This document shows, in pieces, positions 1-61,850 of a stretch of DNA of 64,000 bases; positions within the stretch are counted from its first letter, which is position 1, and every line of letters starts with the position of its first letter. Under the pieces are notes generated by a model that ran no database searches, had not been told where the DNA came from, and worked only from the letters and a program-made list of their open reading frames with translations. A program made the translations under genes and the position numbers. This DNA is from a bacterium (GTDB lineage Bacteria; Sysuimicrobiota; Sysuimicrobiia; Sysuimicrobiales; Segetimicrobiaceae): the NCBI GenBank assembly GCA_035934535.1, contig DASYXS010000005.1, forward strand, positions 6,707 to 70,706, written 5' to 3'.

Positions 1-116
1 GGCGGCTACGGGCCGCCGGAGGAGCGTCCCGCGGAGTTGCGGCGGGCTGATCGCGTGAACGGGTACGTGACCCCGGCTGCGCGGGGCGGGGCGGCCGACA
101 GGGAGGGGGACGAGGC

Positions 117-907: not shown

Positions 908-1789
908 ATGCCCGCATCACCGTTCGACTATCACGCACCCGCGACCGTGGCCGAAGCGCTCTCGACGCTCGGCGCGCTCGGGGAGGACGCGAAGGTCCTC
1001 GCCGGCGGACAGAGCCTCGTGCCGCTGCTCACCCTGCGGCTCGTGCGTCCCGCCGCGGTCGTGGACATCCACGGACTGGACGAGCTGCGCGGCGTCCGCT
1101 TCGACGGCAATACGCTCGAGCTCGGCGCGCTCGTCCGGCACCGCGCGCTCGAGCTCGGCGAAGGGCCGCTCGGGGCGTGTCCGCTGCTCCAGGAAGCGGC
1201 CGCGTTGATCGGCAACGTGCGCGTCCGCGCGATGGGGACGATCGGCGGCAGCCTGGCGCACGCGGATCCGGCCGCCGAGCTGCCCGCGGTCATCCGCGCG
1301 CTCGACGGCGTCCTCGTCGCGCGCGGGCCGGCGGGAGAACGGACGATTCCGGCGGCGGAGTTCTTCACAGGCCTGCTCTCGACGTCGCTCCGGCCGGGCG
1401 AGCTGCTCGTGGCGGTCCGGCTGCCGCTCCCGGCCGGCCGCGTGGGCTACGCGGTCGAGGAGTTCACCCGGCGCGCCGGGGACTTCGCGATCGTGGCCGT
1501 CATGGCCGCGGTCGAACTGGACGGCGCGGGGCGCACCTCGCGCGTCCGCGTCGCGATCGCCGGCGCGGGCCCGGCGCCGGTCCGGCTGGCCGGCGTCGAG
1601 CGGGCGCTCGCCGGGGTCGAGCCCTCGGAGCAGGCGTTCCGGCAGGCCGTCGCCGATCAGCGATTGGAGATCGAGCCCGACGACGACGTGCACGCCTCGG
1701 CCGATTACCGCCGGCATCTCACCCGCGTGCTGACCGCGCGGGCGTTGGTCCGCGCCGCCGCGCGCGCGGCGAAGGGAGCGGGGGCATGA
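908..1789 (+). CDS. Molybdopterin dehydrogenase FAD-binding (medium, CoxM-like) subunit
   Basis: ORF-track protein MPASPFDYH...; CoxM/XdhB-like FAD-binding fold motifs (AGGQSL, GTIGGSLAHADPAAE); stop overlaps next start (ATGA). Confidence 0.85.
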   Translation: MPASPFDYHAPATVAEALSTLGALGEDAKVLAGGQSLVPLLTLRLVRPAAVVDIHGLDELRGVRFDGNTLELGALVRHRALELGEGPLGACPLLQEAAALIGNVRVRAMGTIGGSLAHADPAAELPAVIRALDGVLVARGPAGERTIPAAEFFTGLLSTSLRPGELLVAVRLPLPAGRVGYAVEEFTRRAGDFAIVAVMAAVELDGAGRTSRVRVAIAGAGPAPVRLAGVERALAGVEPSEQAFRQAVADQRLEIEPDDDVHASADYRRHLTRVLTARALVRAAARAAKGAGA

Positions 1790-2325
1790 CGGAGCTGACC
1801 ATCGCCTTCACGTTGAACGGGGAGCGGCGCGAGGTCCGCGCCGCGGCGCACGAGACCCTGCTCACCCTGTTGCGGGACGGTCTCGGCGCGACGGAGGTCA
1901 AGGACGGCTGCGGGGAAGGCGTCTGCGGCACCTGCACGGTTCTGCTCGACGGCGAACCGGTGAGCAGCTGCCTGCTGCTCGCGGCCCGCGCCGCCGGGCG
2001 CAGGGTGACCACCGTGCGCGGTCTCGCGCCGGTGGACTCGCCGGCCACCATGAAATCACAGCCGGTCGGAAGCCTGAGCCCGCTGCAGCAGGCGTTCGTG
2101 ACCCACGGCGCGGCGCAGTGCGGATTCTGCACGCCGGGGATGCTCCTCACCGCGCACGCGTTCTTGCAGCAGCACCCGCGGCCGACGCGCGACGACATCC
2201 GCCGGGCGATCTCCGGGAACCTCTGCCGGTGCACCGGCTACGCCAAGATCATCGACGCGATCGAAGCCGCATCGGCCGGCGATGCGGCGCCGGCCGGCTC
2301 CGCGGGCGGCCGCCATGAAGGGTAG
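1786..2325 (+). CDS. Molybdenum hydroxylase (2Fe-2S)-binding small subunit (CoxS-like)
   Basis: Cys clusters CGEGVCGTCTV and QCGFCTPG...CRCTGY; contains one copy of the ~45 bp intragenic repeat (extra ~10 aa SPATMKSQPV between the two Fe-S domains). Confidence 0.85.
   Translation: MTELTIAFTLNGERREVRAAAHETLLTLLRDGLGATEVKDGCGEGVCGTCTVLLDGEPVSSCLLLAARAAGRRVTTVRGLAPVDSPATMKSQPVGSLSPLQQAFVTHGAAQCGFCTPGMLLTAHAFLQQHPRPTRDDIRRAISGNLCRCTGYAKIIDAIEAASAGDAAPAGSAGGRHEG
2023..2070 (+). repeat. Intragenic ~45 bp repeat, copy 1 (core ATGAAAT 2050-2056) inside the CoxS-like gene
   Basis: cgcgccggtGGACTCGCCGGCCACCATGAAATCACAGCCGGtcgg; translated in-frame as VDSPATMKSQPVG. Confidence 0.55.
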
Positions 2326-8715: not shown

Positions 8716-9515
8716 CCGCCGCGCGCCAGCCCGCGGCCGTCGGGACGGGCGCCGTTTTGGGCGTGGACCATCTCACGATGCGTTTCGGCGGCCTCGTCGC
8801 CGTCTCCGACGTGTCGTTTACCGTCCGCCCGCGCGAGATCCTCAGCATCATCGGTCCGAACGGCGCCGGGAAGACGACGGTGTTCAACTGTATTACGGGG
8901 TTCCTGCGTCCCACGGCCGGCCGGATCACGTTCGAAGGCAAGGACCTCACCGGGCTGCGCCCCGATCTCGTGGTCAGGCACGGGATCGCGCGCACGTTCC
9001 AGATGATCCGTCTGTTTCCCGATCTCGGCGTGGACGAGAACGTGATGATCGGTCTCCACGGCCGGATCCGCGCCGGCACGCTGGACTCGCTGCTGCACAC
9101 GCCGCTCCACCGGCGCGAGGAGGCCTGGGTGCGCGAGGAGACGCGCCGGTGGCTCGCGTTCGTCGGGTTGGAGGCCCGCGCCGACCGGCTGGCGCGCGAA
9201 CTCGCGTACGGCAACCAGCGGCGCCTCGAGATCGCGCGGGCGCTCGCGACCGGGCCGCGCCTCTTGATTCTCGACGAGCCGGCGAGCGGCATGAACCCCG
9301 CGGAAAAGGCGGGGCTCGTCCAGCTGGTCGACCGGATTCGCGACTCCGGCGTGACGGTGCTGCTGATCGAGCATGACATGAGCGTCGTGATGGGGATCAG
9401 CGATCGGATCATCGTGCTGGATCACGGCGTGCAGATCGCCGAGGGTGTCCCGGACGAGATCCAGCGCGATCCGAAGGTGATCGAGGCGTACCTCGGCCGG
9501 GAGGACGGCGAGTGA
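8712..9515 (+). CDS. ABC transporter ATP-binding protein (LivG-like)
   Basis: GTGA start/stop overlap at 8712; Walker A GPNGAGKTT, signature YGNQRRLEIA, Walker B LLILDEP. Confidence 0.85.
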   Translation: MTAARQPAAVGTGAVLGVDHLTMRFGGLVAVSDVSFTVRPREILSIIGPNGAGKTTVFNCITGFLRPTAGRITFEGKDLTGLRPDLVVRHGIARTFQMIRLFPDLGVDENVMIGLHGRIRAGTLDSLLHTPLHRREEAWVREETRRWLAFVGLEARADRLARELAYGNQRRLEIARALATGPRLLILDEPASGMNPAEKAGLVQLVDRIRDSGVTVLLIEHDMSVVMGISDRIIVLDHGVQIAEGVPDEIQRDPKVIEAYLGREDGE

Positions 9516-10234
9516 GCCTTCTCCAGGTCCGGGACCTCGTCACCGCGTACGGCAGCATCGAAGCGCTGCACGGGCCGTCGTTCCACGTGGACGAGGGGGA
9601 GATCGTGGCGCTGCTCGGCGCCAACGGCGCGGGAAAGACGACCGCGCTGCGGACCATCTCGGGGCTGCTCCGTCCCCGGTCGGGCGAAGTGCACTTCGCC
9701 GGCCGGCGGATCGACACCCAGCCCGCGCACGAGATCGTGCGGGCGGGCCTGACGCAGGTGCCGGAGGGCCGGTGGATCTTCTCGCTGATGACCGTCGAGG
9801 AAAACCTGCGATTGGGCGCTTTTATCGAGCCGGGCGTCCCGCGCGCCGGACTCGACCGCGTCTTCGCGCTGTTCCCGCGCCTCGCCGAGCGGCGCACGCA
9901 GCTGGCCGGCACGCTGTCCGGCGGGGAGCAGCAGATGCTGGCCATGGCGCGCGCGCTCATGACCAAGCCCCGTCTGCTCCTGCTCGACGAGCCGTCGATG
10001 GGGCTCGCGCCCGTGCTGGTCCGGCTGATCTTCGAAAAGATCGCGGAGATCAACCGCGAAGGGACGACCGTCTTGCTCGTGGAGCAGAATGCCAATGCCG
10101 CCCTCCGCCTCGCGAAGCGCGCGTACGTGCTGGAAAACGGCCGCGTGGCGCTCGAGGGACCGGCGGCGGACCTGGCGCGCAACGAAGCGGTCCGCCGCGC
10201 CTACCTCGGCATAGGCGCCGGCGGCCGCGACTGA
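9512..10234 (+). CDS. ABC transporter ATP-binding protein (LivF-like)
   Basis: Walker A GANGAGKTT, LSGGEQQMLAMARAL, LLLLDEP. Confidence 0.85.
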   Translation: MSLLQVRDLVTAYGSIEALHGPSFHVDEGEIVALLGANGAGKTTALRTISGLLRPRSGEVHFAGRRIDTQPAHEIVRAGLTQVPEGRWIFSLMTVEENLRLGAFIEPGVPRAGLDRVFALFPRLAERRTQLAGTLSGGEQQMLAMARALMTKPRLLLLDEPSMGLAPVLVRLIFEKIAEINREGTTVLLVEQNANAALRLAKRAYVLENGRVALEGPAADLARNEAVRRAYLGIGAGGRD

Positions 10235-28178: not shown

Positions 28179-28880
28179 TCAGGCCCGTACATGCTCCACC
28201 AGCCCGGCGAGATCGCGCACGATCACGTCCGGCGCAGGTCCTAATCGCTCCCGCGGCGCGCCGGCCCGGTTGACCCAGGCAGCCCGTAGGCCGAAGGCCT
28301 TTGCTCCCGCGGCGTCCCAGGCGTTTGACGAGACGAACAGGATCGCCGAGCGGGCGAGCCCGAGCCGGCGCTCGGCGAGCGCGTACACGGCGGGGACCGG
28401 CTTGTAGGTCCGTACCTCGTCGACGCTGAGAACGTGCGCAAACGATTGGCGGAGCTCCGCCGACCGCAGCGCGCGCTCCAGCATGGACGGGCTGCCGTTG
28501 GACAGCACGGCGAGCGTCTTCGGCGCCAGGCGCGCGAGCGCGGCGGGCACCTCGGGATACGCGCGCAGCGTCAGCCAGCCCTCCAGCATCCGCCGGCGCG
28601 CGTCGGGTTCGACGGCGAGGCCCAGCCGCTCGAGCGTGTAATCGAGGGAGGCGGCCGTGACGGCCCAAAAGTCGTCGTACCGGTCCATCGCGGCGCGCAG
28701 CCAGGTGTACTCGAGCTGCTTCTGCCGCCACGCCGTCACGACGGCCTCTGAGCCGGCGGTCTCGGCGGCGCCCCCTTCGGGGACTGGCCCACCGGATGCG
28801 CGGGCGTCGCAGAGGCGGTCGAGGGAGCGCACGTCGAGGAGCGTGCCGTAGAGGTCGAAGACCAACGCCTCGACGGTCAT
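28179..28880 (-). CDS. Haloacid dehalogenase type II / HAD superfamily hydrolase
   Basis: HAD motif I FDLYGTL at N-terminus; 233 aa; L-2-haloacid dehalogenase-like. Confidence 0.75.
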   Translation of the reverse strand: MTVEALVFDLYGTLLDVRSLDRLCDARASGGPVPEGGAAETAGSEAVVTAWRQKQLEYTWLRAAMDRYDDFWAVTAASLDYTLERLGLAVEPDARRRMLEGWLTLRAYPEVPAALARLAPKTLAVLSNGSPSMLERALRSAELRQSFAHVLSVDEVRTYKPVPAVYALAERRLGLARSAILFVSSNAWDAAGAKAFGLRAAWVNRAGAPRERLGPAPDVIVRDLAGLVEHVRA

Positions 28881-29638
28881 TCCGGCACGGTCACGCCGCG
28901 CACGCGATGCGCCTCGATGAGGCGGGCGACGAGGCCCGACGCTTTCGCGCCTTCTACGAACTCACGCAGGAACGCGGCGCCCGCGCCGGCCGATCCCCGG
29001 CCGGCAACCATGAAATTAGAACCGCCGCGTCCGCGCGGGGTGCCGATCGACTGCTGCACGCCCGTCACCCGGCCGTCCAGCACGCGCGACCCCGGCAGCG
29101 CGTCGGCCGCGGCGACGAGGCGCGGCTTGAGGCAGGCCAGCGCGTCGAGCTTCGCCTCCACGAACAGTGTGACCGACGCCTCGATGCCTTCGGCGCGCAC
29201 GAGCGCCGCGTGCTCGAGGGTGCGGCTGAGGAAGAGATCGTACGCGCTCTTGGCGGAGACCGCGATGCGCACGCCGTCCCGGTCCACGTCCGCGAGCGTC
29301 CGGATCGGCGAGCCCGCCGGCACGAGGTACGTGACGGGAATCTCGAGATAGGCGGGGCTGAACGCGATTTCCGCGGCGCGTTGCGGTTCGTTGCCGAGGA
29401 ACGCGATGTCCCAGCGGTTGTCGCCGGCGCCGTCCGCCAGGGGACCGGCCTGGGGATACCGCACGAATTCCAAGGGCACGCCGAGGCGGCGTCCGATCTC
29501 GCGCGCGAGATCGGGTGCGACGCCGCGCGGCTCGCCGGTCGGGCCGTCGGGCAGCACGAGTAAAGAATTTCCGTAGTTCAGGCCGGCGCGCAGGACGCCC
29601 GACGGCGCAAGCGCCGCCCGGACCTCACGGATGCCCAA
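28877..29638 (-). CDS. Family 3 solute-binding-like protein without signal peptide (PBP2 fold)
   Basis: 253 aa; SBP_bac_3-type regions (LRAGLNYGNSLL, DIAFLGNEPQRA); no N-terminal signal peptide; carries an antisense copy of the intragenic repeat (GGSNFMVAGRG). Confidence 0.65.
   Translation of the reverse strand: MGIREVRAALAPSGVLRAGLNYGNSLLVLPDGPTGEPRGVAPDLAREIGRRLGVPLEFVRYPQAGPLADGAGDNRWDIAFLGNEPQRAAEIAFSPAYLEIPVTYLVPAGSPIRTLADVDRDGVRIAVSAKSAYDLFLSRTLEHAALVRAEGIEASVTLFVEAKLDALACLKPRLVAAADALPGSRVLDGRVTGVQQSIGTPRGRGGSNFMVAGRGSAGAGAAFLREFVEGAKASGLVARLIEAHRVRGVTVPE
28982..29032 (+). repeat. Intragenic ~45 bp repeat, copy 2 (core ATGAAAT 29010-29016), antisense inside the SBP_bac_3-like gene
   Basis: cgcgccggccgatccccGGCCGGCAACCATGAAATTAGAACCGCCGcg; host gene on opposite strand reads GGSNFMVAGRG. 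Confidence 0.5.
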
Positions 29639-32931: not shown

Positions 32932-34629
32932 ATGCTGACGGTCAAAGAGGCGCTGGAGCTCGACGTGCTGCGCGACGTGAAGATCGTGGCCGGCAGTGAG
33001 GGGCTCGACCGGCAGATTCGCTGGTGCCACATCATCGACAACCCCGAGATCGTCCGCTGGATCCAGGGAGGCGAGCTGCTGCTCACGACCGGCTACGGCT
33101 GGCCGGAGATGGAGCAGACGAGCCGCCGCACGATCCGGGCGCTCAACGGCAAGCGGTTGGCCGCGATTCTCTTCGATCCCGGGCCGTTCCTCGGCGAGAT
33201 TCCGGCCAACGTCGTCGACGAGGCGGGGCGCCTCGAGCTGCCGGTGCTCGTCGCGCCGCGGAAGCTGCGGTTCGCCGACGTGACCGAGGCGGTCGGACGC
33301 GAGCTGATCCGGCGGCAGTACGCGATCATCGAGCGCGCCGACCGGTATCACCGTCAGATCACCGCCGCGGCGGTGGAGGCACGCGACCTCAACGACATCG
33401 CGCGCACCGTCTGCGGCCTGACGCGCCGGTCCGTCGCCATCGAAGACGCGGAGTTCCGGCCGCTCGCGCGGGCGGACTCGCCCGCAACGATGAAATTGCA
33501 GCGGGCCGAACACGGCGACGGCGCGGGAACCCCGTCGGCGGCGGCCGGCCCGGCCGCGGGCGTTCCGCCGTTCCCGCACGACGGCCCGGAGTGGCGGGCG
33601 CTGCGCGAACGGCTGCGGGGCGCCGACGGCGCCGTGCGGCAGGACGGCCGCGTGGCGTGCGCGATCAGGGCCGGCAGCGAGCTGCTCGGCTACCTGTGGA
33701 TCCTCGAGGGCCAGGCGCCGCTCGGCGATCTCGAGCTGCGGGTGGCCGAGCACGGCTCGATGGTCGCGGCGCTGCACATCCTGCGCCAGCGCTCGCAGGC
33801 CGCCGTTGAGGCGAGAATCGGCCACACCGTCGTCGACGCGCTGATCCGCGGCGACGTGCCGGCGGAAGATCTGATCGAGCGGTCGCGGCTCCTCGGCTTC
33901 GACCCGGACGGCGATTATGTCGTCATGATGGTCTCGCTCATGGACCGCGCCGCCCGAGGCCGCAAGTGGCCGCTGACCAGCCGCGACGAGTATGATCGGC
34001 GCGAGCACGCCGCGCAGGTGCTGCGGCGCCTCTTGGGACAGGACCGGCTGCCGATCCTGTGCACGTACTCGCTCAACCGGATCATCTGTCTTCTGTCGGT
34101 GAATCGCATGCCGGATGCGCCCGAGTGGCCGCGCCGGTTCGCGCGCCGGCTGCACGAGCATCTGGCCGGTGCGGACGGTGTGCCGCCCGTGCTGGTGACG
34201 TTTGGGACGGCACACGCCGGGCTGGCCGGCGTGTCCAAGGGCTACTGGGAAGCCGACCGGGCGCTCGCCCTGGCCAAGGATGCCGACCGCATCTTGTTCT
34301 TCGAGGATCTCACACTCGCCCATCTCCTGGCGCAGATCTCGGACACGACCTCGCTGCAGGCGATGTACGCGCGGACGCTCGGACCGGTGCTCGCCGGCCC
34401 GAGGGGCCGCGTGCTGAGAGAAACCCTCTGGGCGCTCGTCGACGCCGGGTTCAACAGGGAGACGGCGGCCGCGGCGCTCGGCATCCACCGCAACACGATG
34501 CGCGGACGGCTGGAGCGGGTGCAGGCGCTGCTCTGCCGGCCGCTCGGCGACCCCACCGTTCGCCGCGACCTCGCAGTGATCAAGGAGATCGAGCAGTTGT
34601 TGGTCCCCGAATCACGCCCGACGATCTGA
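32932..34629 (+). CDS. PucR family transcriptional regulator
   Basis: 565 aa; PucR N-terminal ligand-binding domain and C-terminal HTH (ETAAAALGIHRNTMRGRLERV); contains one copy of the intragenic repeat (ADSPATMKLQRAE). Confidence 0.75.
   Translation: MLTVKEALELDVLRDVKIVAGSEGLDRQIRWCHIIDNPEIVRWIQGGELLLTTGYGWPEMEQTSRRTIRALNGKRLAAILFDPGPFLGEIPANVVDEAGRLELPVLVAPRKLRFADVTEAVGRELIRRQYAIIERADRYHRQITAAAVEARDLNDIARTVCGLTRRSVAIEDAEFRPLARADSPATMKLQRAEHGDGAGTPSAAAGPAAGVPPFPHDGPEWRALRERLRGADGAVRQDGRVACAIRAGSELLGYLWILEGQAPLGDLELRVAEHGSMVAALHILRQRSQAAVEARIGHTVVDALIRGDVPAEDLIERSRLLGFDPDGDYVVMMVSLMDRAARGRKWPLTSRDEYDRREHAAQVLRRLLGQDRLPILCTYSLNRIICLLSVNRMPDAPEWPRRFARRLHEHLAGADGVPPVLVTFGTAHAGLAGVSKGYWEADRALALAKDADRILFFEDLTLAHLLAQISDTTSLQAMYARTLGPVLAGPRGRVLRETLWALVDAGFNRETAAAALGIHRNTMRGRLERVQALLCRPLGDPTVRRDLAVIKEIEQLLVPESRPTI
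33463..33510 (+). repeat. Intragenic ~45 bp repeat, copy 3 (core ATGAAAT 33490-33496) inside the PucR regulator gene
   Basis: ctcgcgcgggcGGACTCGCCCGCAACGATGAAATTGCAGCGGGccgaa; about 76% identical to copy 1 over ~50 nt; translated ADSPATMKLQRAE. Confidence 0.55.
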
Positions 34630-35951: not shown

Positions 35952-37262
35952 ATGATGCGGTGCGGCCGTCTTGTGGTTGGAGTCATCGCGGTCTTGGCGA
36001 TCTGTCTAGGAACGGGACTGCCCCGCGGGGCCGGTGTGCCCGCGGCCACGGCCGCGGCCGGCTGGATGCTGCCGGCCGGTCCGATCACGATCGGTGAATG
36101 GGACGGCGGTGACGGCACCAAGTCGCATCTGCTGATGGACCTGATCGCCCAGTACGAGAAGATGCATCCGAACATCAAGATCCAGTTCGAGACGGACGTG
36201 AAATCGCTGACCGTCGCCGCGGCCGTCGCGGCCGGCACGGCGCCCGTGATTTTCGAAGCCCCGGACTCCGTCCTGCCAAAGTATATCGCCGCCGGGGCGC
36301 TCGAGCCGCTGCCGCCCGCGGCCTGGGGAAAGCCGAACGTGGACGGCGTGCTCACGCTCTACCTGCCGCACGTCCTCGACGGCTTCATGGCCGGCCACAC
36401 ACTGTACGCGGTGCCGGACCAGATGAACGCGCACAGCCTTTGGATCAACAACCGGCTCTTCCGCGAAGCGGGCCTGGACCCGGTGAAGGACGCGCCCAAG
36501 ACGTGGGCCGACGTCGCCCGGCTGAATGCGAAGCTCACAAAGAAGCAGGGGGACAGGATCACGCAGAAGGGCTTTGAGTTTCGCTACATCTGCGACGACG
36601 GGCACTGGGAAGCGCAGCTGTTCCAGGCCCTGGTGTACCAGGCCGGTGGGCAGGTCCTTCAGGACGGCAGGCCGGTGTTTAACGGTCCCGCGGGCATCGA
36701 GGCGCTCAACACGTGGAAGAGCCTCGTCACAGCACCCCAGGTGACGCAAAACACCTGCTCTTCGCCGTACCAGGACTTTGCCGTGGAGCAGGATGCGATG
36801 ACCTTCGCCGGGCCCAACGGCGGACCCGTGTTCGAACAGGTCAATCCTAAAATGAAGGGCAACATGACCGTCGTCCCGCTTCCGCAGATCCGGCCGGACC
36901 ACCCCGTGACTCTCATCTACTCGTTCAACTGGACCGTGAACGCGCGGGCGTCGGCGGCGCAGAAGCGCGTGGCCTGGGATCTCATTCACTTCTTCAGCAC
37001 GCAGCCGACGCTGTGGTGGACGAGAATCGGGTTCCTGCAGGGCGCCGAGGGATGGTACAAGACCCCGGAAGCGCAGCGGACGCCGTTCTTGAACGTATTC
37101 AACCACGATCTGTCGGTGGGCCGGCCGGTGCCGCGAACCACCCACTATCCCGAACTGCAGGCCACGCTGAAGCGAATGATGGATCGGGTGATCTTGAACA
37201 ACGCCGATCCGAAGCAGGCCCTGGATCAGGCCGCCGACGAGTACACGCGGGCGGCCCGGTGA
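35952..37262 (+). CDS. ABC transporter substrate-binding protein (CUT1/extracellular solute-binding family 1)
   Basis: Signal peptide/lipobox-like N-terminus (MMRCGRLVVGVIAVLAICLGTG); 436 aa; paralog of 41146-42453. Confidence 0.8.
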   Translation: MMRCGRLVVGVIAVLAICLGTGLPRGAGVPAATAAAGWMLPAGPITIGEWDGGDGTKSHLLMDLIAQYEKMHPNIKIQFETDVKSLTVAAAVAAGTAPVIFEAPDSVLPKYIAAGALEPLPPAAWGKPNVDGVLTLYLPHVLDGFMAGHTLYAVPDQMNAHSLWINNRLFREAGLDPVKDAPKTWADVARLNAKLTKKQGDRITQKGFEFRYICDDGHWEAQLFQALVYQAGGQVLQDGRPVFNGPAGIEALNTWKSLVTAPQVTQNTCSSPYQDFAVEQDAMTFAGPNGGPVFEQVNPKMKGNMTVVPLPQIRPDHPVTLIYSFNWTVNARASAAQKRVAWDLIHFFSTQPTLWWTRIGFLQGAEGWYKTPEAQRTPFLNVFNHDLSVGRPVPRTTHYPELQATLKRMMDRVILNNADPKQALDQAADEYTRAAR

Positions 37263-37272
37263 CCCACAGAGG

Positions 37273-38298
37273 ATGACGCCCCGAACGATCGACGTCCATT
37301 TCCACGTCGTGCCGCCGGAGTTCTACGAGGCGGTGCGGCGCGGCCAATTCCGCGAGTTCGTGGAGATCGAGCGGCGCGGGGGCGTGGAGCGTATGGTGTA
37401 CCATGCGCCTCCCGGCGTGGTGCTGGAACCCGACAACGAGATCGACACGCGGTGCTCCGACGCCCGCCTGATGCTCGAAGGCCTCGACCGGCGGGAGCTG
37501 GACGCCGCGGCGATCGGCCCGTCGCCGGGCCAGTTCTACTACTGGGCCGATCCCGAGCTCGCCGAGCAGATCGCCCGCGTGATCAACGACGGCATCGCCG
37601 CGCTGGCCAGGGCGCACCCGGACCGGATGTTCCCCATGGGCTCGCTGCCGATGCAGGATGGTGAACGGGCCGCGCGCGAGCTCGAGCGCGCCGTCACGCG
37701 GCTCGGCCTGTGCGCGTTCGAGATCTGCACGCACATCAACGGGACGGACCTCGACGATCCGCGGTTCGCGCCGGTGTTCGCGGCGGCGGCGCGGCACGGG
37801 ACGCCGATCTTCCTGCACCCGCAGAACTGGGGCGAGATGCGGCGCCTCAAGGACTACCACCTCTGGAACCTGGCAGGCTTTCCGTTTGAGACCGGCCTCG
37901 CGGCGGCGCGCCTGATCGCCGGCGGCGTCTTCGAGCGCAACCCGGAGCTCAAGATCGTCCTCGCGCACGGCGGCGGCTACTTTCCGTATCAGATCGGCCG
38001 CCTCGACCACGGCTACAAGGTGCGCGCGGAGCTGCACGACCGGCTGCCGAAGCCGCCGAGCGCCTACCTCGGCGGCATCTACTGCGACACCCTCACCCAC
38101 AACACGACGGCGCTCCGGTTTCTGGTAGAGCGCATGGGCGACGACCACGTCGTGATCGGCACGGACTACCCGTTCGACATGGGAGACGAGACGCCGGTCG
38201 AGAGCGTGCGCGCGTGCCGGCTCGGACCGGAGCGGGAAGCCAACGTGCTGGGACGCAATCTGGCGCGCCTGCTGCGGGCGGGGCCGGCGGCGCGGTGA
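37273..38298 (+). CDS. Amidohydrolase_2 family metal-dependent hydrolase/decarboxylase (ACMSD-like)
   Basis: HxH at N-terminus (IDVHFHVVPPEF), conserved His/Asp ligands (HPQNW..., LAHGGGYFPY, GTDYPFDMGDE); embedded inside the ABC transporter operon. Confidence 0.8.
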   Translation: MTPRTIDVHFHVVPPEFYEAVRRGQFREFVEIERRGGVERMVYHAPPGVVLEPDNEIDTRCSDARLMLEGLDRRELDAAAIGPSPGQFYYWADPELAEQIARVINDGIAALARAHPDRMFPMGSLPMQDGERAARELERAVTRLGLCAFEICTHINGTDLDDPRFAPVFAAAARHGTPIFLHPQNWGEMRRLKDYHLWNLAGFPFETGLAAARLIAGGVFERNPELKIVLAHGGGYFPYQIGRLDHGYKVRAELHDRLPKPPSAYLGGIYCDTLTHNTTALRFLVERMGDDHVVIGTDYPFDMGDETPVESVRACRLGPEREANVLGRNLARLLRAGPAAR

Positions 38299-39254
38299 TC
38301 GACGCGGGGACGTCTCCGCCCGTGGGGGGCCGGTCGGCCGGCCTGCCGGCTCGGGCCGGGCGCGGCGCCCGCCGGTCGTGGCTGCGGTCCGCGGAAGCGC
38401 GGCACCAGGCGTGGGGGTATCTGTTCCTCGCGCCGATGTTCCTGCTGCTCGTCGTCTTCAAGTTCATTCCGATGATTCAGGCCTTCTACCTGAGCTTCAC
38501 GAACTACGATCTCCTGAGTCCGCCGAAGTTCGTGGGCCTACGGAACTACGTGGCGCTGCTCGGCGACCCGCTCTTCCATCAATCGGTCGACGTCACCCTC
38601 TACTACGTCTTCGGCACCTGCGTGTTCATCTGGTTTCTGTCGCTCGCGATGGCGCTCGTGTTCAACGCCCCGCTGCCCGGCCGGAACATCCTGCGGACGG
38701 TGTACTTTCTGCCGGCGATCGTGCCCGTCGTCGTCTACGCGGTGATCTGGCTGTTCTTGTTCCATCCGTACGGCCTGCTGAACGTCGCGCTCCAAACGAT
38801 CGGCCTCCGGCCGGTGCAGTGGCTCTCGGATACCCGCGCGGTGATGCCCGGGTTCATCCTCGCGGCGCTGTGGCGCTTCGTCCCATACTTCATGATCATC
38901 TACCTCGCCGGGCTGCAGAACATCCCGAACGAGTACTACGAGGCGGCGGCGATCGACGGGGCGGCGGGCGCGCAGGCCTTCCGGTATGTGACGCTGCCGC
39001 TGCTGCGGCCGACGATCCTGCTCGTGGTCGTCATCTCGCTCATCTTGATGTCCAAGGTCTTCACGAACGTGCTGATCATCACCGGCGGCGGGCCGGACGG
39101 CGCGACGCGCGTGCTGTCGCTGTTCATCTACCAGACCGGGTTCCAATTTTTCAAGATGGGCCTCGCCAGCGCCGCGTCGATATTCCTCCTGCTCGGCACG
39201 ATGACGTTTACGCTCCTGCAGCTGCGCTTCTTCCGGGACGATGCCCGTGGATAG
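38295..39254 (+). CDS. Carbohydrate-type ABC transporter permease (MalF/UgpA-like)
   Basis: GTG 38295 in GTGA overlap with upstream stop (ORF extends in-frame from 38214); 6-TM permease with EAA loop. Confidence 0.75.
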   Translation: MIDAGTSPPVGGRSAGLPARAGRGARRSWLRSAEARHQAWGYLFLAPMFLLLVVFKFIPMIQAFYLSFTNYDLLSPPKFVGLRNYVALLGDPLFHQSVDVTLYYVFGTCVFIWFLSLAMALVFNAPLPGRNILRTVYFLPAIVPVVVYAVIWLFLFHPYGLLNVALQTIGLRPVQWLSDTRAVMPGFILAALWRFVPYFMIIYLAGLQNIPNEYYEAAAIDGAAGAQAFRYVTLPLLRPTILLVVVISLILMSKVFTNVLIITGGGPDGATRVLSLFIYQTGFQFFKMGLASAASIFLLLGTMTFTLLQLRFFRDDARG

Positions 39255-40074
39255 GCGCCAGAGCGCGCTCTACTGGGCCGGCGTCCTGCTGGTCGCGGCC
39301 TGGGGCTTCGTCCAGCTGCTGCCGATTCTCTGGATGGTCTCGACGTCGCTCAAGCCGCTCCGAACGGTCTTCGCCCTTCCGATTCAGTGGATCCCGCGGC
39401 CGCCGGAATGGGCGAACTATCCTGAGGCCTGGGGCCAGTTCCCGTTCGCGCGGTACTTTGCCAACAGCTTCATCGTCTCGCTGTCGGTCACGGTGCTGAA
39501 CGTCGTGCTCGCCGGCATGGCGGGGTACAGTCTCGCGAAGTACCGCTACTTCGGCCAGCGGGCGCTCTTTATCGCCGTGTTGAGCACCTTGATGCTGCCG
39601 CTCGAGGTGCTGATGGTGCCGACGTTCATCATCGTCAAGAACTTCGGCTGGCTCAACACCTACCAGGGGCTCATCGTCCCGGTGGTCGCGGATGCGTTTG
39701 GGATCTTCCTCATGCGGCAGTACATGCTGAGCCTGCCGGACTCGCTGGTCGAGGCCGCCCGCATCGACGGCGCGGGCGAGCTCGGCACCTACTTCCGGAT
39801 CGTGGTGCCGCTCACGTGGCCGGCGGTCCTGACCCTCGCGATCTTCACCTGGCGCGAGACCTGGGACGCGTTCGTGTGGCCGTTCATCATCATCACCGAC
39901 GACCGGCTCCGGACGATCCCGATCGGCCTGCAGCGCTTTCAGGAGGAGTACGTCACGACCTACAACTCGGTCATGGCCATTTCGACGATTGCCATGATCC
40001 CGATGGTGCTGCTGTTTTTCTTCTTCCAGCGCGCGTTCATTCGCGGTATTGCGCTGTCCGGCCTCAAGGAATGA
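39241..40074 (+). CDS. Carbohydrate-type ABC transporter permease (MalG/UgpE-like)
   Basis: 277 aa; EAA motif region (EAARIDGAGELGTYFRIVVPL). Confidence 0.8.
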   Translation: MPVDRRQSALYWAGVLLVAAWGFVQLLPILWMVSTSLKPLRTVFALPIQWIPRPPEWANYPEAWGQFPFARYFANSFIVSLSVTVLNVVLAGMAGYSLAKYRYFGQRALFIAVLSTLMLPLEVLMVPTFIIVKNFGWLNTYQGLIVPVVADAFGIFLMRQYMLSLPDSLVEAARIDGAGELGTYFRIVVPLTWPAVLTLAIFTWRETWDAFVWPFIIITDDRLRTIPIGLQRFQEEYVTTYNSVMAISTIAMIPMVLLFFFFQRAFIRGIALSGLKE

Positions 40075-41153
40075 CGTCTCGCGAGGCCCAGGAGGCCGCC
40101 GTGGCGGCGGAAGTCCCGCGCAAGACGAGAGAGGTGCCGGCGATGCGACCCAGCGATCTTCCGAGCGCGACCCAGAGCCCGCGCTTCTCGGGCATCCGGA
40201 CGTTCATGCGGCTGCCCTGGGCCGCGGACCTGCGGGAGGCCGGCGTGCAGGTCGCCATCATGGGCATCCCGTTCGACACCGCGGCGAGCTTCCGGACGGG
40301 GGCGCGCTTCGGGCCGTCGGCGATCCGCGACATCTCCGTGCTGCTGCGCCCGTCCAACCAGTTCCACCGGATCAACGCGCTCGACGCGCTGCGCGTCGTC
40401 GACCGCGGCGACGTCGCGGTCGTGCCCGGCGACATCGCGCGGACCTACGCGAACATCGAAGAGGAGTGGGCGCGGTGCGCCGCCGCGGGGGTCGTGCCGA
40501 TCGGCCTCGGCGGTGACCACTCCGTCACGCTCGGGGAACTGCGCGCGCTGGCCCGGCGGGACGGGCCGCTCGCGCTCGTCCAGTTCGACTCGCACACCGA
40601 CACCTGGGACAACTACTGGGGGGTGCGCTATACGCACGGGACCGGGTTCCGGCGGGCGTGCGAAGAGGGCCTCATCGAGACGGCCCGCTCGATCCAGGTC
40701 GGGCTGCGGGGCAGCGAGTACGCCCCGGGCGACCTCGACGAGAACCGGCGGCTGGGCTTCGAGGTGCTGCTGGCGCCGGATCTGCTGACGATGTCGCCGA
40801 TCGAGGTGGCGGCGGCGATCCGGCGGCGTGTGGGCGCGGGGCCCGCGTTTCTCAGCTTCGATATCGACTTTTTCGACCCGGCGTTCGCGCCCGGCACCGG
40901 CACGCCGGAAGCCGGGGGGCCCACCAGCGCCTTCGGGCTGCAGGTCGTGCGCCATCTCGCCGGCATTCCGTTTGTCGGGTACGACGTCGTGGAGGTGCTG
41001 CCGGCGCACGATTCCGCCGCGATCACGGCGCTGCTGGCGGCCACGGTCGTCTTCGAGTTTCTCGCGTTGATCGCGCTGTCGAGATCGGGCGCGCGGACAG
41101 AAGCGGCGGTACAGGCGCCCATAGCCACCGCGGGAGGTGACGGACATGAGTAA
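40071..41153 (+). CDS. Arginase/agmatinase family ureohydrolase (agmatinase/guanidino-acid hydrolase-like)
   Basis: ATGA overlap start (MTSREAQEA...); Mn-binding motifs GGDHS, DSHTDTW, SFDIDFFDPAFAPGTGTPE; 360 aa. Confidence 0.8.
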   Translation: MTSREAQEAAVAAEVPRKTREVPAMRPSDLPSATQSPRFSGIRTFMRLPWAADLREAGVQVAIMGIPFDTAASFRTGARFGPSAIRDISVLLRPSNQFHRINALDALRVVDRGDVAVVPGDIARTYANIEEEWARCAAAGVVPIGLGGDHSVTLGELRALARRDGPLALVQFDSHTDTWDNYWGVRYTHGTGFRRACEEGLIETARSIQVGLRGSEYAPGDLDENRRLGFEVLLAPDLLTMSPIEVAAAIRRRVGAGPAFLSFDIDFFDPAFAPGTGTPEAGGPTSAFGLQVVRHLAGIPFVGYDVVEVLPAHDSAAITALLAATVVFEFLALIALSRSGARTEAAVQAPIATAGGDGHE

Positions 41154-42453
41154 TCGATTCGGACGCCGCGAACTGCTTCGGGCCGGCGGCGCGGCGGCGG
41201 CGATGGCGGTGGGCGGACTGCTGCCCGCCGGCGCCGGTGCCGCGGATTGGGTGCTGCCGCGGCATCCGGTTACCATCACTTACTGGGACTCCGTCGAAAA
41301 CGTCAAGAACGAATTGATGGTGAAGACCCTGATCCCTGAGTACACGCGCCTGCACCGGAACGTCACGATCAAGTACGAGCCGGTCCCGGATCTGCAGTCC
41401 AAGCTCCTCGTCGCCCTCAGCACCGGGACCGCGGCGGACGTCTTCTCGACCTCGGACTGGTTTCTCCCGAAGTTCTTCGAAGCCCGGGTGCTGGATCCGC
41501 TGCCGCCCGCGGCGTGGGGCCAGAGCAGCGTCTCCGGCGTGCTCCGCACGTATCTGCCGCACATGCTGGACGCGCAGACGGACGGCGGCCGGCTCTACGC
41601 GGTGCCGGCACAGGAGAATGCGCACAGCCTGTTCATCAACAACCGGCTGTTCCGCGAGGCGGGGCTGGATCCGGTGAACGATGCGCCCAAGACCTGGATC
41701 GACGTGGCCCGCCTGAACAAGATCCTGACCAAGCGGCAGGGGGACCAGCTCGTCCAAAAAGGCTGGGAGATGCGCTACATCAACGACGACGGCCATTGGC
41801 AGGCGCAGATGTTTCAGATCCTGCTGTACCAGGCCGGCGGCGAGATGACCCGCGACGGGCGGCCGGTGTTCAACAGCGACGCGGGCGTGCGGGCGCTCAC
41901 GGTGTGGAAGAGCGTGACGATCGATCCGCGGATCACGCACAACACGGGCGGATCGCCGTACCAGGACTTCGCGGTCGAACAGGACGCCATGACGTTCGCC
42001 GGGCCCAACGCCGGCGCATCGATCGAGAAGATCAACCCCAAGATGGCGGGCAACTACACGGTCGCGCCGCTGCCCCAGATCCGCGCCGGCAGCCCGGCGA
42101 CGATCGTGTACTCGTTCAATTGGGCCGTGAACGCCAAAGCCCCGGAGGAGCAGCGCCGCGTGGCGTGGGACTTCGTGCACTTCGTCAGCACCCGGCCGGC
42201 GCTCTTCATGGCGACGGCCCGGTATCTGCAGCCGGTGAAGGGCTGGTACGATACGCCGGCGGCCCGGCAGGTGCCGTTCCTCGGCGTGTTCGTTCACGAT
42301 TTGTCGATCGGCCGGCCGCTGGCGCGGTCGACGCACTATCCTGAGCTGCAGTCCTCGATCGTCCGGATGATCGAGCGTGTGATCCTCAACAACGCGGACG
42401 CCAAGCAGGCACTCGATCAGGCGGCCGCAGAGTACGCGGCGGCGTCACGGTAG
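41146..42453 (+). CDS. ABC transporter substrate-binding protein (CUT1 family) with Tat-like signal
   Basis: ATG 41146 after GGAGGTG RBS (MSNRFGRRELLRAGGAAAAMAVGG); long conserved blocks with 35952-37262 (NAHSL[WF]INNRLFREAGLDPV, KTW.DVARLN). Confidence 0.8.
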   Translation: MSNRFGRRELLRAGGAAAAMAVGGLLPAGAGAADWVLPRHPVTITYWDSVENVKNELMVKTLIPEYTRLHRNVTIKYEPVPDLQSKLLVALSTGTAADVFSTSDWFLPKFFEARVLDPLPPAAWGQSSVSGVLRTYLPHMLDAQTDGGRLYAVPAQENAHSLFINNRLFREAGLDPVNDAPKTWIDVARLNKILTKRQGDQLVQKGWEMRYINDDGHWQAQMFQILLYQAGGEMTRDGRPVFNSDAGVRALTVWKSVTIDPRITHNTGGSPYQDFAVEQDAMTFAGPNAGASIEKINPKMAGNYTVAPLPQIRAGSPATIVYSFNWAVNAKAPEEQRRVAWDFVHFVSTRPALFMATARYLQPVKGWYDTPAARQVPFLGVFVHDLSIGRPLARSTHYPELQSSIVRMIERVILNNADAKQALDQAAAEYAAASR

Positions 42454-42484
42454 GAGGACATGGCATGCCGCGCGGGAGCCGCAA

Positions 42485-43648
42485 CTATCCGTCCGGGCCG
42501 GTGGGAGGGGACGACATCCGCGGACCGATCGCCAGGGCCGCGGCGCCGAGGGGCAGCGCCAGGAGGAACGGCGCTGTGAGGCTGAAGCGCGCCACCGAAG
42601 CGCCCAGGAGCGGGCCGGCGAACAGCCCGATGTCGATCGCGCTGTTGTACACGCTCATGGCAGCCGTATAGTGATCCGGAGGGACGCGATGGGTCATGAG
42701 CATCGCGAACGTGACGGGCATGATGCCCCAGGCCGTGCCGTAGACGGCTCCCGCGGCGAGCAGCGGTGCCGCGCCGTGAAGCAGGGGAAGGGCGAGTTCC
42801 GTGCCGGCCATCCCGACGATGGCGCCGAGCATCAACCACCGGCCGTGCTCTCGGGCGACGAGCCGGCCGGTGGGGATCTGCATCACCGCGTACATGCCGC
42901 CTTGAATCGCGAAGATCCACCCGATGAACAGGACGGAGACGCCCTGCCGCGACACGTAGAGCGGCATGAAGGTCGTCCAGATTCCCGCCAGGCTGTAGCA
43001 CAGTAGAATGGCAACGCCGAGGCGTGCCACCGATGCCGTCGAGAGAAAGGCCGTGAAGTCGCGGAAGGACGCCCGGCCCGGGGTGGGGCGGGGCATGGGC
43101 CAGCCGGCCATCATGGGAATCGCCGCGAGGCTGAAGAGCGCCCCCAGCGCGAAGGGCGCGCCCTCGCCGGAATGCGCCGCTGCGAATCCGCCGATTGCGG
43201 GACCGAGCAGGGCGGCGAACGACGTGCACAGCCAGAAGACGCCAAAGGCCCGTCCGCGTCCCTCGGGCGTTGTGGAGTCGGCGACGGTCGCGTGGAGTGG
43301 CGGTACGAGCACGCCTCTCGCGGCGCCGACCGCCGCGAGGGCGGCCGCTACGAGCGGGCGGGCGTGGCCGATCGCGGCGACGCCGAGGCACAGCGCGTTC
43401 GCGCCGAAGGCGCCGAGCAACTGCCAGCGTCTCCCGATCGCCGCGGCGATCACGCCTGCCTGGAGCTCCACGAGCCCCATGGTGAGGCTGAAGACCCCCA
43501 CCACCAGCCCGATTTCGGCCAGACTGAACCCGAGATGGGCGAGATGCAGCGAAAGAATGGGCACGACCACTTGCCAGGACGCGCTTGCGCAGAATCCGGC
43601 GCCGCCCAGCACGAGGCTCGGCGCGCGACGCCGAGATGCCGTCTTCAT
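42485..43648 (-). CDS. MFS transporter
   Basis: 387 aa, 12 predicted TM segments, MFS-type G-x3-D/R-x-G-R-R loop (AIGRRWQLLG). Confidence 0.75.
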   Translation of the reverse strand: MKTASRRRAPSLVLGGAGFCASASWQVVVPILSLHLAHLGFSLAEIGLVVGVFSLTMGLVELQAGVIAAAIGRRWQLLGAFGANALCLGVAAIGHARPLVAAALAAVGAARGVLVPPLHATVADSTTPEGRGRAFGVFWLCTSFAALLGPAIGGFAAAHSGEGAPFALGALFSLAAIPMMAGWPMPRPTPGRASFRDFTAFLSTASVARLGVAILLCYSLAGIWTTFMPLYVSRQGVSVLFIGWIFAIQGGMYAVMQIPTGRLVAREHGRWLMLGAIVGMAGTELALPLLHGAAPLLAAGAVYGTAWGIMPVTFAMLMTHRVPPDHYTAAMSVYNSAIDIGLFAGPLLGASVARFSLTAPFLLALPLGAAALAIGPRMSSPPTGPDG

Positions 43649-43741
43649 GCTGACGTGTCGATTTCACCCGGCGCCTGACCGTTTCCTAGGTTGCGGCGGG
43701 GCGTGTACCGCGAATGCCAAATCAGCCGTGGAGGTGGGTGG

Positions 43742-44755: not shown

Positions 44756-44771
44756 CGCTGTGCGTGCTCAG

Positions 44772-45782: not shown

Positions 45783-45804
45783 TCACGGCAACGGGGGTGT
45801 CGGC

Positions 45805-47112: not shown

Positions 47113-47121
47113 CCCGCGGAG

Positions 47122-48435: not shown

Positions 48436-48456
48436 GCGGATCGGCCCCCGCCGTTC

Positions 48457-49446: not shown

Positions 49447-49450
49447 GCCG

Positions 49451-50323: not shown

Positions 50324-50336
50324 TGCTCCCGCACCC

Positions 50337-60309: not shown

Positions 60310-60329
60310 GCGGAGCCGTCGGCCGGCCG

Positions 60330-61100
60330 GTGGTGGGTCACGCCGTCCTGGAGCTCGAGCGGATCTGCCGCCGCTTCGGCGGCCTCGAGGCGATCCGGGA
60401 CGTCACCATGTCCGTGCCGGAAGGATCGCGGCGGGCGATCATCGGCCCGAACGGCGCCGGCAAGACGACGCTGTTCAACATCATCACCGGCGAGCTCGCC
60501 GCCTCGTCGGGGCGCCTGCGGTTCTTCGGCCGGGACGTGACGGGTCTGCCCGCCCACGCGCGGGCCGCGCTGGGACTCGGCCGCACGTTCCAGATCACCA
60601 ACCTCTTCGGTCCGCTCACCGTGGAGGACAATATGCTCCTCGCGGTGCAGGCGCTGTCGCCCTCCAAGTACGCGATGCTGCGGCCGCTGCGGCGGGACCG
60701 GGCGGTGCTCGACCGCGCCCGGGCGCTGCTCGAGCCGGCGGGCCTCTGGCAGAAGCGCGACGCCGAGGTCCACGTGCTCTCCTACGGCGAGCAGCGGCAA
60801 TTGGAGGTCCTGCTGGCGCTGGCCGGACGTCCGCGCCTGCTGCTGCTGGACGAGCCGGCGGCCGGGCTCTCGCCGGGCGAGCGCCGGGAGATGGCGCAGT
60901 TCATCAAAGGCCTGGACCCGGGGCTGACCCTGCTGCTCATCGAGCACGACATGGACGTCGCGTTCGAGATCGTCGACGCGATTACGGTGCTGCACTTCGG
61001 CTGCGTCGTGGCGGAGGGCACGAAGGAAGCGGTCCGCGCCGACCGGTCCGTGCAGGAGATCTATCTCGGCACCGAAGCGGCCGGGCAGGAGACCCACTAG
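60330..61100 (+). CDS. ABC transporter ATP-binding protein (LivG-like), second system
   Basis: Walker A GPNGAGKTT, YGEQRQLEV, LLLLDEP. Confidence 0.8.
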   Translation: MVGHAVLELERICRRFGGLEAIRDVTMSVPEGSRRAIIGPNGAGKTTLFNIITGELAASSGRLRFFGRDVTGLPAHARAALGLGRTFQITNLFGPLTVEDNMLLAVQALSPSKYAMLRPLRRDRAVLDRARALLEPAGLWQKRDAEVHVLSYGEQRQLEVLLALAGRPRLLLLDEPAAGLSPGERREMAQFIKGLDPGLTLLLIEHDMDVAFEIVDAITVLHFGCVVAEGTKEAVRADRSVQEIYLGTEAAGQETH

Positions 61101-61850
61101 ATGGCCGTGCTCGCGGTCGACGACATCCACACCTACTACGGCGATTCGCACGTGCTGCAGGGGGTGAGCCTCGAGGTGCGGCCGGGCGCCGTGACGGCGC
61201 TCCTCGGCCGCAACGGCATGGGCAAGACGACGCTCATCCGGTCGGTCGTCGGGTTTGCGCGGCCGCGGCGGGGCCGCGTGGTGTTCGACGGGCGGGACAT
61301 CACCCGGGTACCGAGCCACGAGATCGCGCGGGCCGGGATCGGCCTTGTCCCGCAGGGCCGCCGCATCTTTCCGTCGCTCACCGTGCACGAGAACCTGACC
61401 GTGGCGGCGCGCAGTGGGAACGGTCCCGGCCGGCCTGCGACCGGCCACCGTGAAATCAACGCCGCCGGCGGCACGCCGTGGTCGATCGAGCGGGTCCTCG
61501 GGCTGTTTCCGCGCCTCGGCGATCGCGCCGCGCACCGCGGCAACATGCTCTCCGGCGGAGAGCAGCAGATGCTCGCGATCGGCCGCGCACTCATGACGAA
61601 TCCGCGCCTGCTGCTGATGGACGAGCCGTCCGAAGGCCTCGCGCCGCTGCTGGTCCGGAATCTCGGCGACGCGATCGTCCGCCTCCGCGAGGAAGGGTTG
61701 AGCATCCTGCTCGTGGAGCAGAACCTGCCGATGGCCCTCCGGGTCGCCGGCGACGTGTACGTGCTCAGCAAAGGCCACGTGGTCTATCACGGCGCGCCGG
61801 CGGACCTCGCCGCCGATACGGCCGTCACGCACCGGTACCTGGGGGTCTAG
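61101..61850 (+). CDS. ABC transporter ATP-binding protein (LivF-like), second system
   Basis: Walker A GRNGMGKTT, LSGGEQQMLAIGRAL, LLLMDEP; carries a ~15 aa insertion (…NGPGRPATGHREINAAGG…) coinciding with a copy of the intragenic repeat. Confidence 0.8.
   Translation: MAVLAVDDIHTYYGDSHVLQGVSLEVRPGAVTALLGRNGMGKTTLIRSVVGFARPRRGRVVFDGRDITRVPSHEIARAGIGLVPQGRRIFPSLTVHENLTVAARSGNGPGRPATGHREINAAGGTPWSIERVLGLFPRLGDRAAHRGNMLSGGEQQMLAIGRALMTNPRLLLMDEPSEGLAPLLVRNLGDAIVRLREEGLSILLVEQNLPMALRVAGDVYVLSKGHVVYHGAPADLAADTAVTHRYLGV
61420..61470 (+). repeat. Intragenic ~45 bp repeat, copy 4 (core GTGAAAT 61450-61456) inside the LivF-like gene
   Basis: ggtcccGGCCGGCctgcgaCCGGCCACCGTGAAATCAACGCCGCCGGcgg; read in a different frame from copies 1 and 3 (GRPATGHREINAAGG). 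Confidence 0.5.

Follow-up and report, generated by a model that had tools for sequence, protein, structure and literature searches.

Four short DNA segments, lying in-frame inside four unrelated protein-coding genes of the window (the whole stretch of 64,000 nucleotides analysed here), are copies of a real repeat family, and on balance they are best explained as lineage-specific, miniature, non-autonomous insertion elements of a REP-like kind. All four loci (Table 1) carried the features that the earlier note had described, with (A/G)TGAAAT starting at positions 2050, 29010, 33490 and 61450, in 4/4 cases on the forward strand. The core CSGC-MRCS-RTGAAAT-Y was common to the four copies and was reproduced by no shuffle of the window. 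When the 19-mer of copy 1 was searched with up to three mismatches, copies 2 and 4 were matched, against 0.01 matches expected in the window. The 16-nt degenerate core CSGCMRCSRTGAAATY, a pattern derived from the copies themselves, occurred at exactly four loci of the window and in 0 of 100 shuffles. Copies 1 and 3 shared 38 identities over 48–49 nt without gaps (79% as 38/48, where ~76% had been given before), and copies 2 and 4 shared 32 of 49, also ungapped. Random pairs of 49 nt from the window shared 14.2 ± 3.5 identities, with a maximum of 30 in 20,000 pairs. An nhmmer profile search of the 64-kb window found no fifth copy.

TGAAAT occurred nine times in the window against 5.2 expected and was not enriched by itself; the significance of the repeat stems from its flanks. 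ATGAAAT, which the earlier note had put at well under one occurrence per 64 kb, is in fact expected about 1.1 times; six were observed, three of them (5219, 12460 and 19801) judged unrelated to the repeat family, as was a triple-box match at 9698-9748. The four window copies have equal positions modulo 40, which was taken as a coincidence. An artefact behind this spacing was ruled out by independent ENA scaffolds and by diverged orthologous copies in other samples. The CoxS-like and LivF-like proteins were identical on two ENA forest-soil scaffolds, whose DNA was 99.8–99.9% identical to the window, and both were present as well on an NCBI third-party MAG contig. The nearest named relative for LivF was Candidatus Segetimicrobium genomatis (Candidatus Sysuimicrobiota), at 76% identity.

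Table 1. Repeat copies, their host genes and associated features in the window.
Feature	Coordinates	Strand	Remark
Host gene 1, CoxS/CutS-family (2Fe-2S)-binding small subunit	1786..2325	+	
Box1 of copy 1, hexamer GCCGGT	2028..2033	+	Single in empty site; recurs at 2061-2066
Copy 1, 33-nt insert in CoxS-like gene	2034..2066	+	33 extra nt relative to empty ortholog L202
Host gene 2, SBP_bac_3 periplasmic binding protein	28877..29638	-	
Copy 2, antisense to SBP_bac_3 gene	28985..29029	+	Orthologs without insert
Host gene 3, PucR-family regulator	32932..34629	+	
Box1 of copy 3, hexamer GCGGGC	33468..33473	+	Recurs at 33501-33506
Copy 3, 33-nt insert in PucR inter-domain linker	33474..33506	+	Empty orthologs 94% identical
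Possible left-end remnant of element, PBP/LivG intergenic spacer	60318..60336	-	..ACCGGCCGGCCGAC..; weak assignment, under nhmmer threshold
Host gene 4, LivF-type ABC ATPase, second LivF-like gene of the window	61101..61850	+	
Copy 4, 45-nt insert in second LivF-like gene	61424..61468	+	Empty ortholog L205

The consensus order of the unit is box1, spacer, box2, AT-rich core (CACCATGAAATCA) and box3, the boxes being GCCGGC-like. The spacer, sGACyTsCs, is 5–9 nt long (21 nt in one subfamily), and the core, (C/A)AC(C/G)RTGAAAT(C/T)A, is followed by 2–6 nt up to box3. Inserts measure 33–48 nt, and units with their 6-bp terminal boxes 39–57 nt. Copy 1 reads GGACTC, GCCGGC (box2), CACCATGAAATCACA (core) and GCCGGT (box3), with the peptide ..VDSPATMKSQP..; copy 3 reads GGACTC, GCCCGC, AACGATGAAATTGCA and GCGGGC, with the peptide DSPATMKLQRA. 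The layout of copy 2 is GCCGGC, CGATCCCCG, GCCGGC, AACCATGAAATTAGAACC and GCCGCG, and its net insert relative to the orthologs, 28990-29025 (36 nt), gives the peptide GGSNFMVAGRGS. Copy 4 has its boxes at 61429-34, 61440-45 and 61464-69 and the core CACCGTGAAATCAACGCC, and encodes PGRPATGHREINAAG in a frame shifted by one base from that of copies 1 and 3. Degenerate cores also exist (TGAGAT, TGTAAT); as the core served as the anchor of the searches, part of its invariance reflects ascertainment.

Box1 and box2 are predicted to pair in a GC-only hairpin with a stem of 7–8 bp and a loop of 4–5 nt: 7 bp and 4 nt in copy 1, 8 bp and 5 nt in copy 2 (z = -3.9), and a perfect 7-bp stem in copy 3 (z = -2.9). 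On folding as single-stranded DNA, 6 of 11 units gave z between -2.4 and -3.9. The background probability in the window for a stem of at least 7 bp whose end falls at one set position is 1.4%, and three of the four copies had such a stem at that position, which places the hairpin potential, proposed earlier as a check, above background. Compensatory changes accompany the stem. The internal box of copy 3, GCCCGC, is the exact reverse complement of its box1, GCGGGC, and is compensatory relative to copy 1; in the PucR subfamily the pair GCCGGY/GCCGGC became GCGGGC/GCCCGC, a box2/box3 variant that recurs at the isochorismatase site. At the ADH site, GCCGGCCG/CGGCCGGC became GCCGGCGG/CCGCCGGC. The motif 3′ of the hairpin is mostly CACC, with the variants AACC, CGCC, AACG and GACC, and CGTC once, while (C/G)TG stands on the 5′ side.

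The host itself supplies box1 of copies 1 and 3: the hexamer is single in the empty site and recurs as box3, so that a 6-nt direct repeat brackets the insert and the element contains the complement of that repeat. Besides its complementarity to box2, the flanking hexamer matches box3 in sequence, at 5/6 positions in copy 1 and 6/6 in copy 3, these being the two informative sites. The CoxS and PucR targets are themselves alike (CTCGCGCSGGY^CGR, 12/15 identical; a caret marks the junction), and no clean target duplication was definable for the SBP and LivF copies. Since the 6-nt repeat and the box covariation rest on two similar targets, homology-driven copying fits them equally.

Comparison with orthologs, for which the earlier note had proposed looking for empty sites and mapping the extra residues, showed empty sites for all four hosts. 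Orthologs 87–95% identical lacked the inserts (33, 36, 33 and 45 nt for copies 1–4), and the extra residues coincided exactly with the repeat: 11 aa in CoxS, 12 aa in SBP, 11 aa in PucR and 15 aa in LivF. The extra length reported before in CoxS and LivF was thus borne out, with the figure of 15 aa for LivF standing and that of about 10 aa for CoxS corrected to 11. Thirteen CoxS orthologs (78–90% identity) lacked the 11 aa and read RGLA-PVGSL, where the window reads RGLA-PVDSPATMKSQ-PVGSL; the only filled sites were those of the window and its closest relative, which has a 16-aa version. Filled forms at this site are +33 or +48 nt, the empty-site DNA in L202 is GCGCCGGT^CGGAAG, and CoxS homologs in the PDB show an 11-aa gap at the insert position. 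SBP orthologs in L207, L210 and L213 are 240 aa long without the 12 aa, the window being +36 nt. At the PucR site, LARA^E stands in the empty orthologs P0245, P0246 and P0248 (94% identity), and the DNA in L207 is CTCGCGCGGGC^CGAGGG; filled forms are +33, +48 or +96 nt, the last consisting of two tandem 48-nt copies in one relative. The empty LivF ortholog in L205 reads AACGG^CAGCACGCCGTGG (protein NG^STPW), and filled forms are +45 nt (window) and +39 nt (a second relative). In L203 the whole unit is inverted at the same place, yielding the peptide GGSNFTAAG. The LivF segment is absent from PDB 1JI0 (13-aa gap) and from the window's LivF at 9512-10234 (15 aa of gaps). All eight measured insert lengths were multiples of three.

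In a neighbour-joining tree of PucR from which the linker was left out, the filled state formed one clade, and nested in it were three precisely empty lineages that match the outgroup LARAE. Either the insert was gained once and then precisely lost several times, or this one site gained it repeatedly; the pattern of presence and absence could also come from recombination among strains. The LivF, PucR and ADH sites were hypervariable in length among orthologs, and some GC-only or G/A/P-rich segments found there may be decayed copies. A 15-nt duplication was present in L201 and L210.

On each strand, two of the three frames of the consensus unit are open, and intragenic copies used all four of these (PATMK, GHxEI, NFMVAG and ISS); the stop-containing frame was encountered only at a C-terminus. 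The use of four frames, together with insert lengths in multiples of three, indicates a DNA element filtered by selection rather than a protein motif. The same conclusion, that the repeat is one of DNA and not of protein, had been drawn previously from the different frames and orientations, and it was upheld. In the AlphaFold (AF2) model of LivF, mean pLDDT was 86.7 and only residues 108-123, which are the insert, fell below 50. That the insert is the sole disordered segment of a confident model agrees with the proposal that such sequences are tolerated in surface loops. The CoxS model was poor overall, with the insert within the unstructured, low-confidence inter-domain linker (residues 71-94). 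In PucR the copy is part of the linker that joins the Pfam domains, and in SBP it is close to the C-terminus.

The family appears to be lineage-specific and has entered many unrelated genic and intergenic sites in both orientations. Twelve sites in the ~190 kb of lineage DNA fetched around the orthologs carried about 16 copies, and no copy was found in ~600 kb of unrelated soil loci with LivF homologs, a control of metagenome loci whose LivF homologs were 44–59% identical among the matches listed. Further genic sites in relatives were an ADH gene and the C-termini of a permease, an isochorismatase and a hydantoinase; in the hydantoinase (L202) the element's TAA terminates the protein early. 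Intergenic copies numbered three in the relatives, a tandem dimer among them, and 8 of the 12 sites were inside coding sequence. The statement that every copy lies in a coding sequence therefore holds for the window but not for the relatives, in which intergenic and gene-end copies occur. Both dimers seen (L214, L205) were direct tandems, a tandem dimer in L205 being located at the position that matches the possible remnant of Table 1, and an element in L205 creates a spurious LivG start codon. Copies in the syntenic loci of relatives were in both orientations, with no sign of strand bias. A contig pattern scan with CCGGCMRCCRTGAAATYA gave single chance matches across all phyla among the matches listed, and profile re-scoring of those listed matches revealed no true family member. 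Viral contigs had no match to the 19-mer, Rfam at gathering thresholds gave no family anywhere in the window, and the Pfam lists of the window and the fetched related loci contained no transposase, RAYT or reverse transcriptase.

The copies might also have spread without any transposase, by template switching or by short-patch ectopic gene conversion primed by microhomology at GCCGG-type hexamers, with loss by slippage. We regard such an origin as less likely, though as a serious competitor. The hexamers concerned are abundant in a genome of 70% GC, the junctions of copies 1 and 3 fall exactly at 6-nt repeats that belong to the element too, and the two targets, besides their similarity to each other, share CTCGC with the 5′ part of the element. 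The 15-nt GGAC..GGAC long form, the tandems and the partial remnants are typical slippage products, and no locus examined contained a transposase. However, some sites have little flank homology (AACGG^CAG in LivF, GGAGG^CCG in the permease), and both orientations were found at one site. The AT-rich core and the hairpin are moreover conserved, the latter with compensatory changes, which suggests recognition by a protein over passive copying. The motif might also be a selected nucleic-acid signal, either a protein-binding site or an mRNA hairpin tuning stability or translation, in place of selfish DNA: TGAAAT is invariant within a context of 70% GC, the hairpin is kept, and REPs have been credited with such roles (PMC3733652). 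This explanation is nonetheless improbable. Close relatives do well without the element at every site, it takes either orientation with respect to the host gene, the hosts have no function in common and Rfam gave no match, while the invariance of the core is in part the ascertainment effect described above, the two degenerate cores being exceptions to it.

We consider it just as improbable that a larger transposon, located outside the sampled DNA, left the copies behind as solo ends or excision footprints. The unit does end in inverted GCCGGC boxes resembling short terminal inverted repeats, spacers vary from 5 to 21 nt, truncated forms exist, and the inspected lineage DNA amounts to only ~190 kb. 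Against this, no longer version was present at the 12 sites, in the window or in the loci, and conserved footprints of 30–45 nt at many sites, tandems included, correspond to no known outcome of excision. A last reading, which ascribes the similarity to a protein-level motif such as DSPATMK, to codon usage or to chance, could draw on the shared reading frame of copies 1 and 3 and on their common peptide DSPATMK(S/L)Q. Copies 2 and 4 and those of the relatives, however, are in three other frames or orientations or are intergenic, and shuffles never reproduce the pattern. Against a DNA-level repeat, the earlier note would have counted one and the same peptide in distant taxa that lack nucleotide similarity; distant orthologs were found to have neither insert nor peptide. 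The data on frame and orientation refute this reading.

Three narrower ideas were also rejected. GCCGGCCACCA resembles a tRNA acceptor end with CCA, and chance matches in L011 and L032 were real tRNA 3′ ends; the tRNA-like idea was dropped because CCA is not conserved (ACGA, ACCG, GCGG) and there is no T-arm. For an IHF site (WATCAANNNNTTR), only the ATCAA half was present, and only in some copies. A spliced mini-intron was discarded, as 8/8 inserts were multiples of three and stop-free, which is expected if they are translated.

Among known systems, the closest are REPs, hairpins of 21–65 nt with an adjacent unpaired guide tetranucleotide that are handled as single-stranded DNA by RAYTs (PMC6006769). 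Genic REPs have been recorded for a number of species, foremost Opitutus terrae and, as RPE-4/6, Rickettsia (PMC3733652). The size range of the family is similar, and its stem of 7–8 bp and loop of 4–5 nt match the geometry of CGTC-type REPs, which have a stem of 8–9 bp and a loop of 4–5 nt. Also alike are the short unpaired motif beside the stem, the dispersed, apparently species-specific distribution, patchy among relatives, and the occasional genic copies that add linker or loop residues. The CCGSSCC(n3,4)GGSSCGG targets of Thermomicrobium roseum offer a similar GC-rich palindromic context (Di Nocera et al. 2013, PMC3733652; Quentin et al. 2018, PMC6006769). The family nevertheless fails strict REP membership. 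Its tag is CACC/GGTG-like and not the GT[AG]G or CGTC of REPs, GGTG being close yet unequal; its stems are GC-only, without the A/T first pairs of CGTC REPs; and it has a conserved AT-rich tail of 13–18 nt and a third box. REPs are mostly extragenic, lying downstream of genes, and often form head-to-head or tail-to-tail dimers, whereas 8/12 sites of the family are genic and its dimers are direct. REPs also have a cognate RAYT, often REP-flanked, and none was present in the family's fetched loci.

The earlier note had likened the repeat to Rickettsia RPEs while noting its shorter length, and both points held: the copies are in-frame in unrelated genes and measure 33–48 nt, against ~100–150 bp. 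RPE-1-type elements encode a conserved peptide, as far as later papers relay the original reports (Ogata et al. 2000, 2002 via PMC10969869, PMC3733652). By those relayed descriptions, RPEs are likewise selfish palindromes that lie in-frame in unrelated functional genes at fold-compatible positions; they differ in belonging to AT-rich obligate intracellular bacteria, where the family uses four frames in a free-living soil lineage of 70% GC. There is no evident sequence relationship between the two. The 'peel-and-paste' transposition of IS200/IS605 (PMC6006769) also involves a hairpin element with an internal complement to the flanking target, a target-like 3′ end and precise empty sites. In the family, by contrast, the putative guide and target, seen at two sites, are 6 nt long, pair by Watson-Crick rules and form the hairpin stem itself, and there are neither separate left- and right-end hairpins nor an encoded TnpA. 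The resemblance is one of inferred function. Elements of that type also leave no target duplication and are biased in orientation relative to replication, whereas the family's copies were all on the forward strand in the window and in both orientations at syntenic loci of relatives. Bacterial MITEs are 70–300 bp long, with TIRs of 15–30 bp and defined TSDs (PMC10969869). Like the family, they are non-autonomous, have inverted terminal boxes and occasionally occur as in-frame genic copies; the family is 2–6 times smaller, with boxes of 6 bp and a clear 6-nt flanking repeat in copies 1 and 3 only. The cyanobacterial small dispersed repeats SDR4-6, reportedly described by Elhai et al. in Genome Res. 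in 2008, are said to be 21–27 nt long. They too are mobile-looking repeats well below 100 nt, patchy among close relatives and both genic and intergenic, but they differ in phylum, sequence and architecture, a distinction drawn by description only. Intragenic REPs and Rickettsia RPEs have already been described, and the present family is a variant and not a new category.

As REP-like insertion elements, the units would spread as hairpins of single-stranded DNA, with an HUH/tyrosine transposase (RAYT or IS200-IS605 type) acting on them in trans. Integration would take place beside a hexamer (RCCGGY or GCGGGC) complementary to the internal box and identical to the 3′ box, which would account for the flanking 6-nt repeat and for the way it covaries with the internal box. 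Genic insertions would persist only if their length is a multiple of three, their frame is open and they fall in a flexible loop, linker or terminus; the apparent in-frame property would then arise because only tolerated insertions persist. Precise loss may come about through excision or through slippage from one 6-nt repeat to the other. A further proposal, which we hold to be unlikely, is that of a minimal self-guiding element, in which box2 picks the site by pairing with the target and the target becomes the other half of the stem. In that event, a one-base change in box2 (GCCGGC to GCCCGC) would retarget the element from GCCGGY to GCGGGC, and the family would be the smallest known guide-programmed mobile DNA and provide a steady supply of loop and linker sequence for the proteins of an uncultured phylum. 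Should pairing of guide and target underlie the box covariation, hairpin-directed insertion could be studied or engineered with an unusually small substrate, the 33-nt unit.

The elements call for caution in annotation, as they cause spurious starts (LivG, L205), premature stops (hydantoinase, L202) and 'novel' peptides. Their polymorphisms in presence or absence, length and orientation may be usable as strain markers in soil metagenomes. Intragenic colonisation by selfish DNA is best known from Rickettsia. In the present case, a high-GC lineage of free-living soil bacteria, probably Candidatus Sysuimicrobiota, would appear to have had its coding sequence colonised at scale by REP-sized selfish DNA, which would give the short indels and hypervariable loops that are frequent between orthologs a concrete mechanism.

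Element copy number differed at the PucR site, and element length at both the PucR and CoxS sites. In the PucR linker of one ortholog (P0253, L214:4064-4164), the 48-nt element occurred twice in tandem, ADRPAPDSPATMKLQR ADRLAPDSPATMKLQL, indicating that copy number is variable at a single site. A 33-nt form was present at both the CoxS and PucR sites of the window genome, whereas relatives carried the 48-nt form at both (loci L201, L210 and L214). The longer form has 15 additional nt (GGACCGCCYRSCGGC), which look as though the first 15 nt of the element had been partly duplicated; the difference between the forms at the two sites may reflect parallel deletion or concerted change. Orientation also varied. 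In a 91% identical ortholog of the second LivF-like protein (P0123, L203:892-943), the entire element was inverted within the same loop as that at window positions 61424-61468. Either the element inserted there independently, in reverse orientation, or a resident copy was inverted in situ between its palindromic GCCGGC ends.

The called N-terminal extensions of P0123 and six further LivF orthologs (P0126, P0130, P0131, P0134, P0137 and P0148; alignment A3, columns 1-33) contained a repeated peptide, (M)REPVPSDAGPSRG. The extensions probably result from in-frame reading of upstream DNA and possibly represent another short repeat.

Copies in relatives were also found at gene ends and in a spacer. 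At L202:335-383, the element supplies a TAA stop to the C-terminus of hydantoinase B and lies between two genes, parting them, while the same two genes overlap in the window lineage. The matching place in the window (73-102) holds a GC-only segment of similar length. At L205:1421-1493, the PBP/LivG spacer holds a tandem dimer of the element, and the LivG start set by the gene caller is the element's ATG, on the reverse strand. Its window counterpart (60310-60336) retains only a possible GCCGGCCGAC fragment.

The sequences of the four window copies were confirmed by independent public assemblies. The first base of (A/G)TGAAAT in these copies (2050, 29010, 33490 and 61450) was congruent to 10 modulo 40 in four of four cases; the probability of this common position by chance is ~1.6e-5, and no biological cause was apparent.

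Separately, several paralogous gene blocks occur at 36000-50500. They are 72-88% identical at the DNA level across 300 nt or more, suggesting that transporter and amidohydrolase operons were duplicated, either in tandem or segmentally. A match to the triple-box pattern GCCGGC..RCCSGC..GCSGGY in the first LivF gene (9698-9748) lacked the AT-rich core and was judged a chance occurrence in GC-rich coding DNA.

Examples of paralogous block pairs within window positions 36000-50500
Feature	First block	Second block
Paralogous block pair	45856-46155	47179-47478
Paralogous block pair	37585-37884	45084-45383

Among orthologs with 81-98% identity, loop length was hypervariable at the LivF site (61410-61480; A3), in the PucR linker (alignment A4) and at the ADH site near 63929-63950, and G/A/P-rich segments filled the loops at all three. 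Some of these segments may be decayed elements; if so, the element family would be a source of loop evolution.
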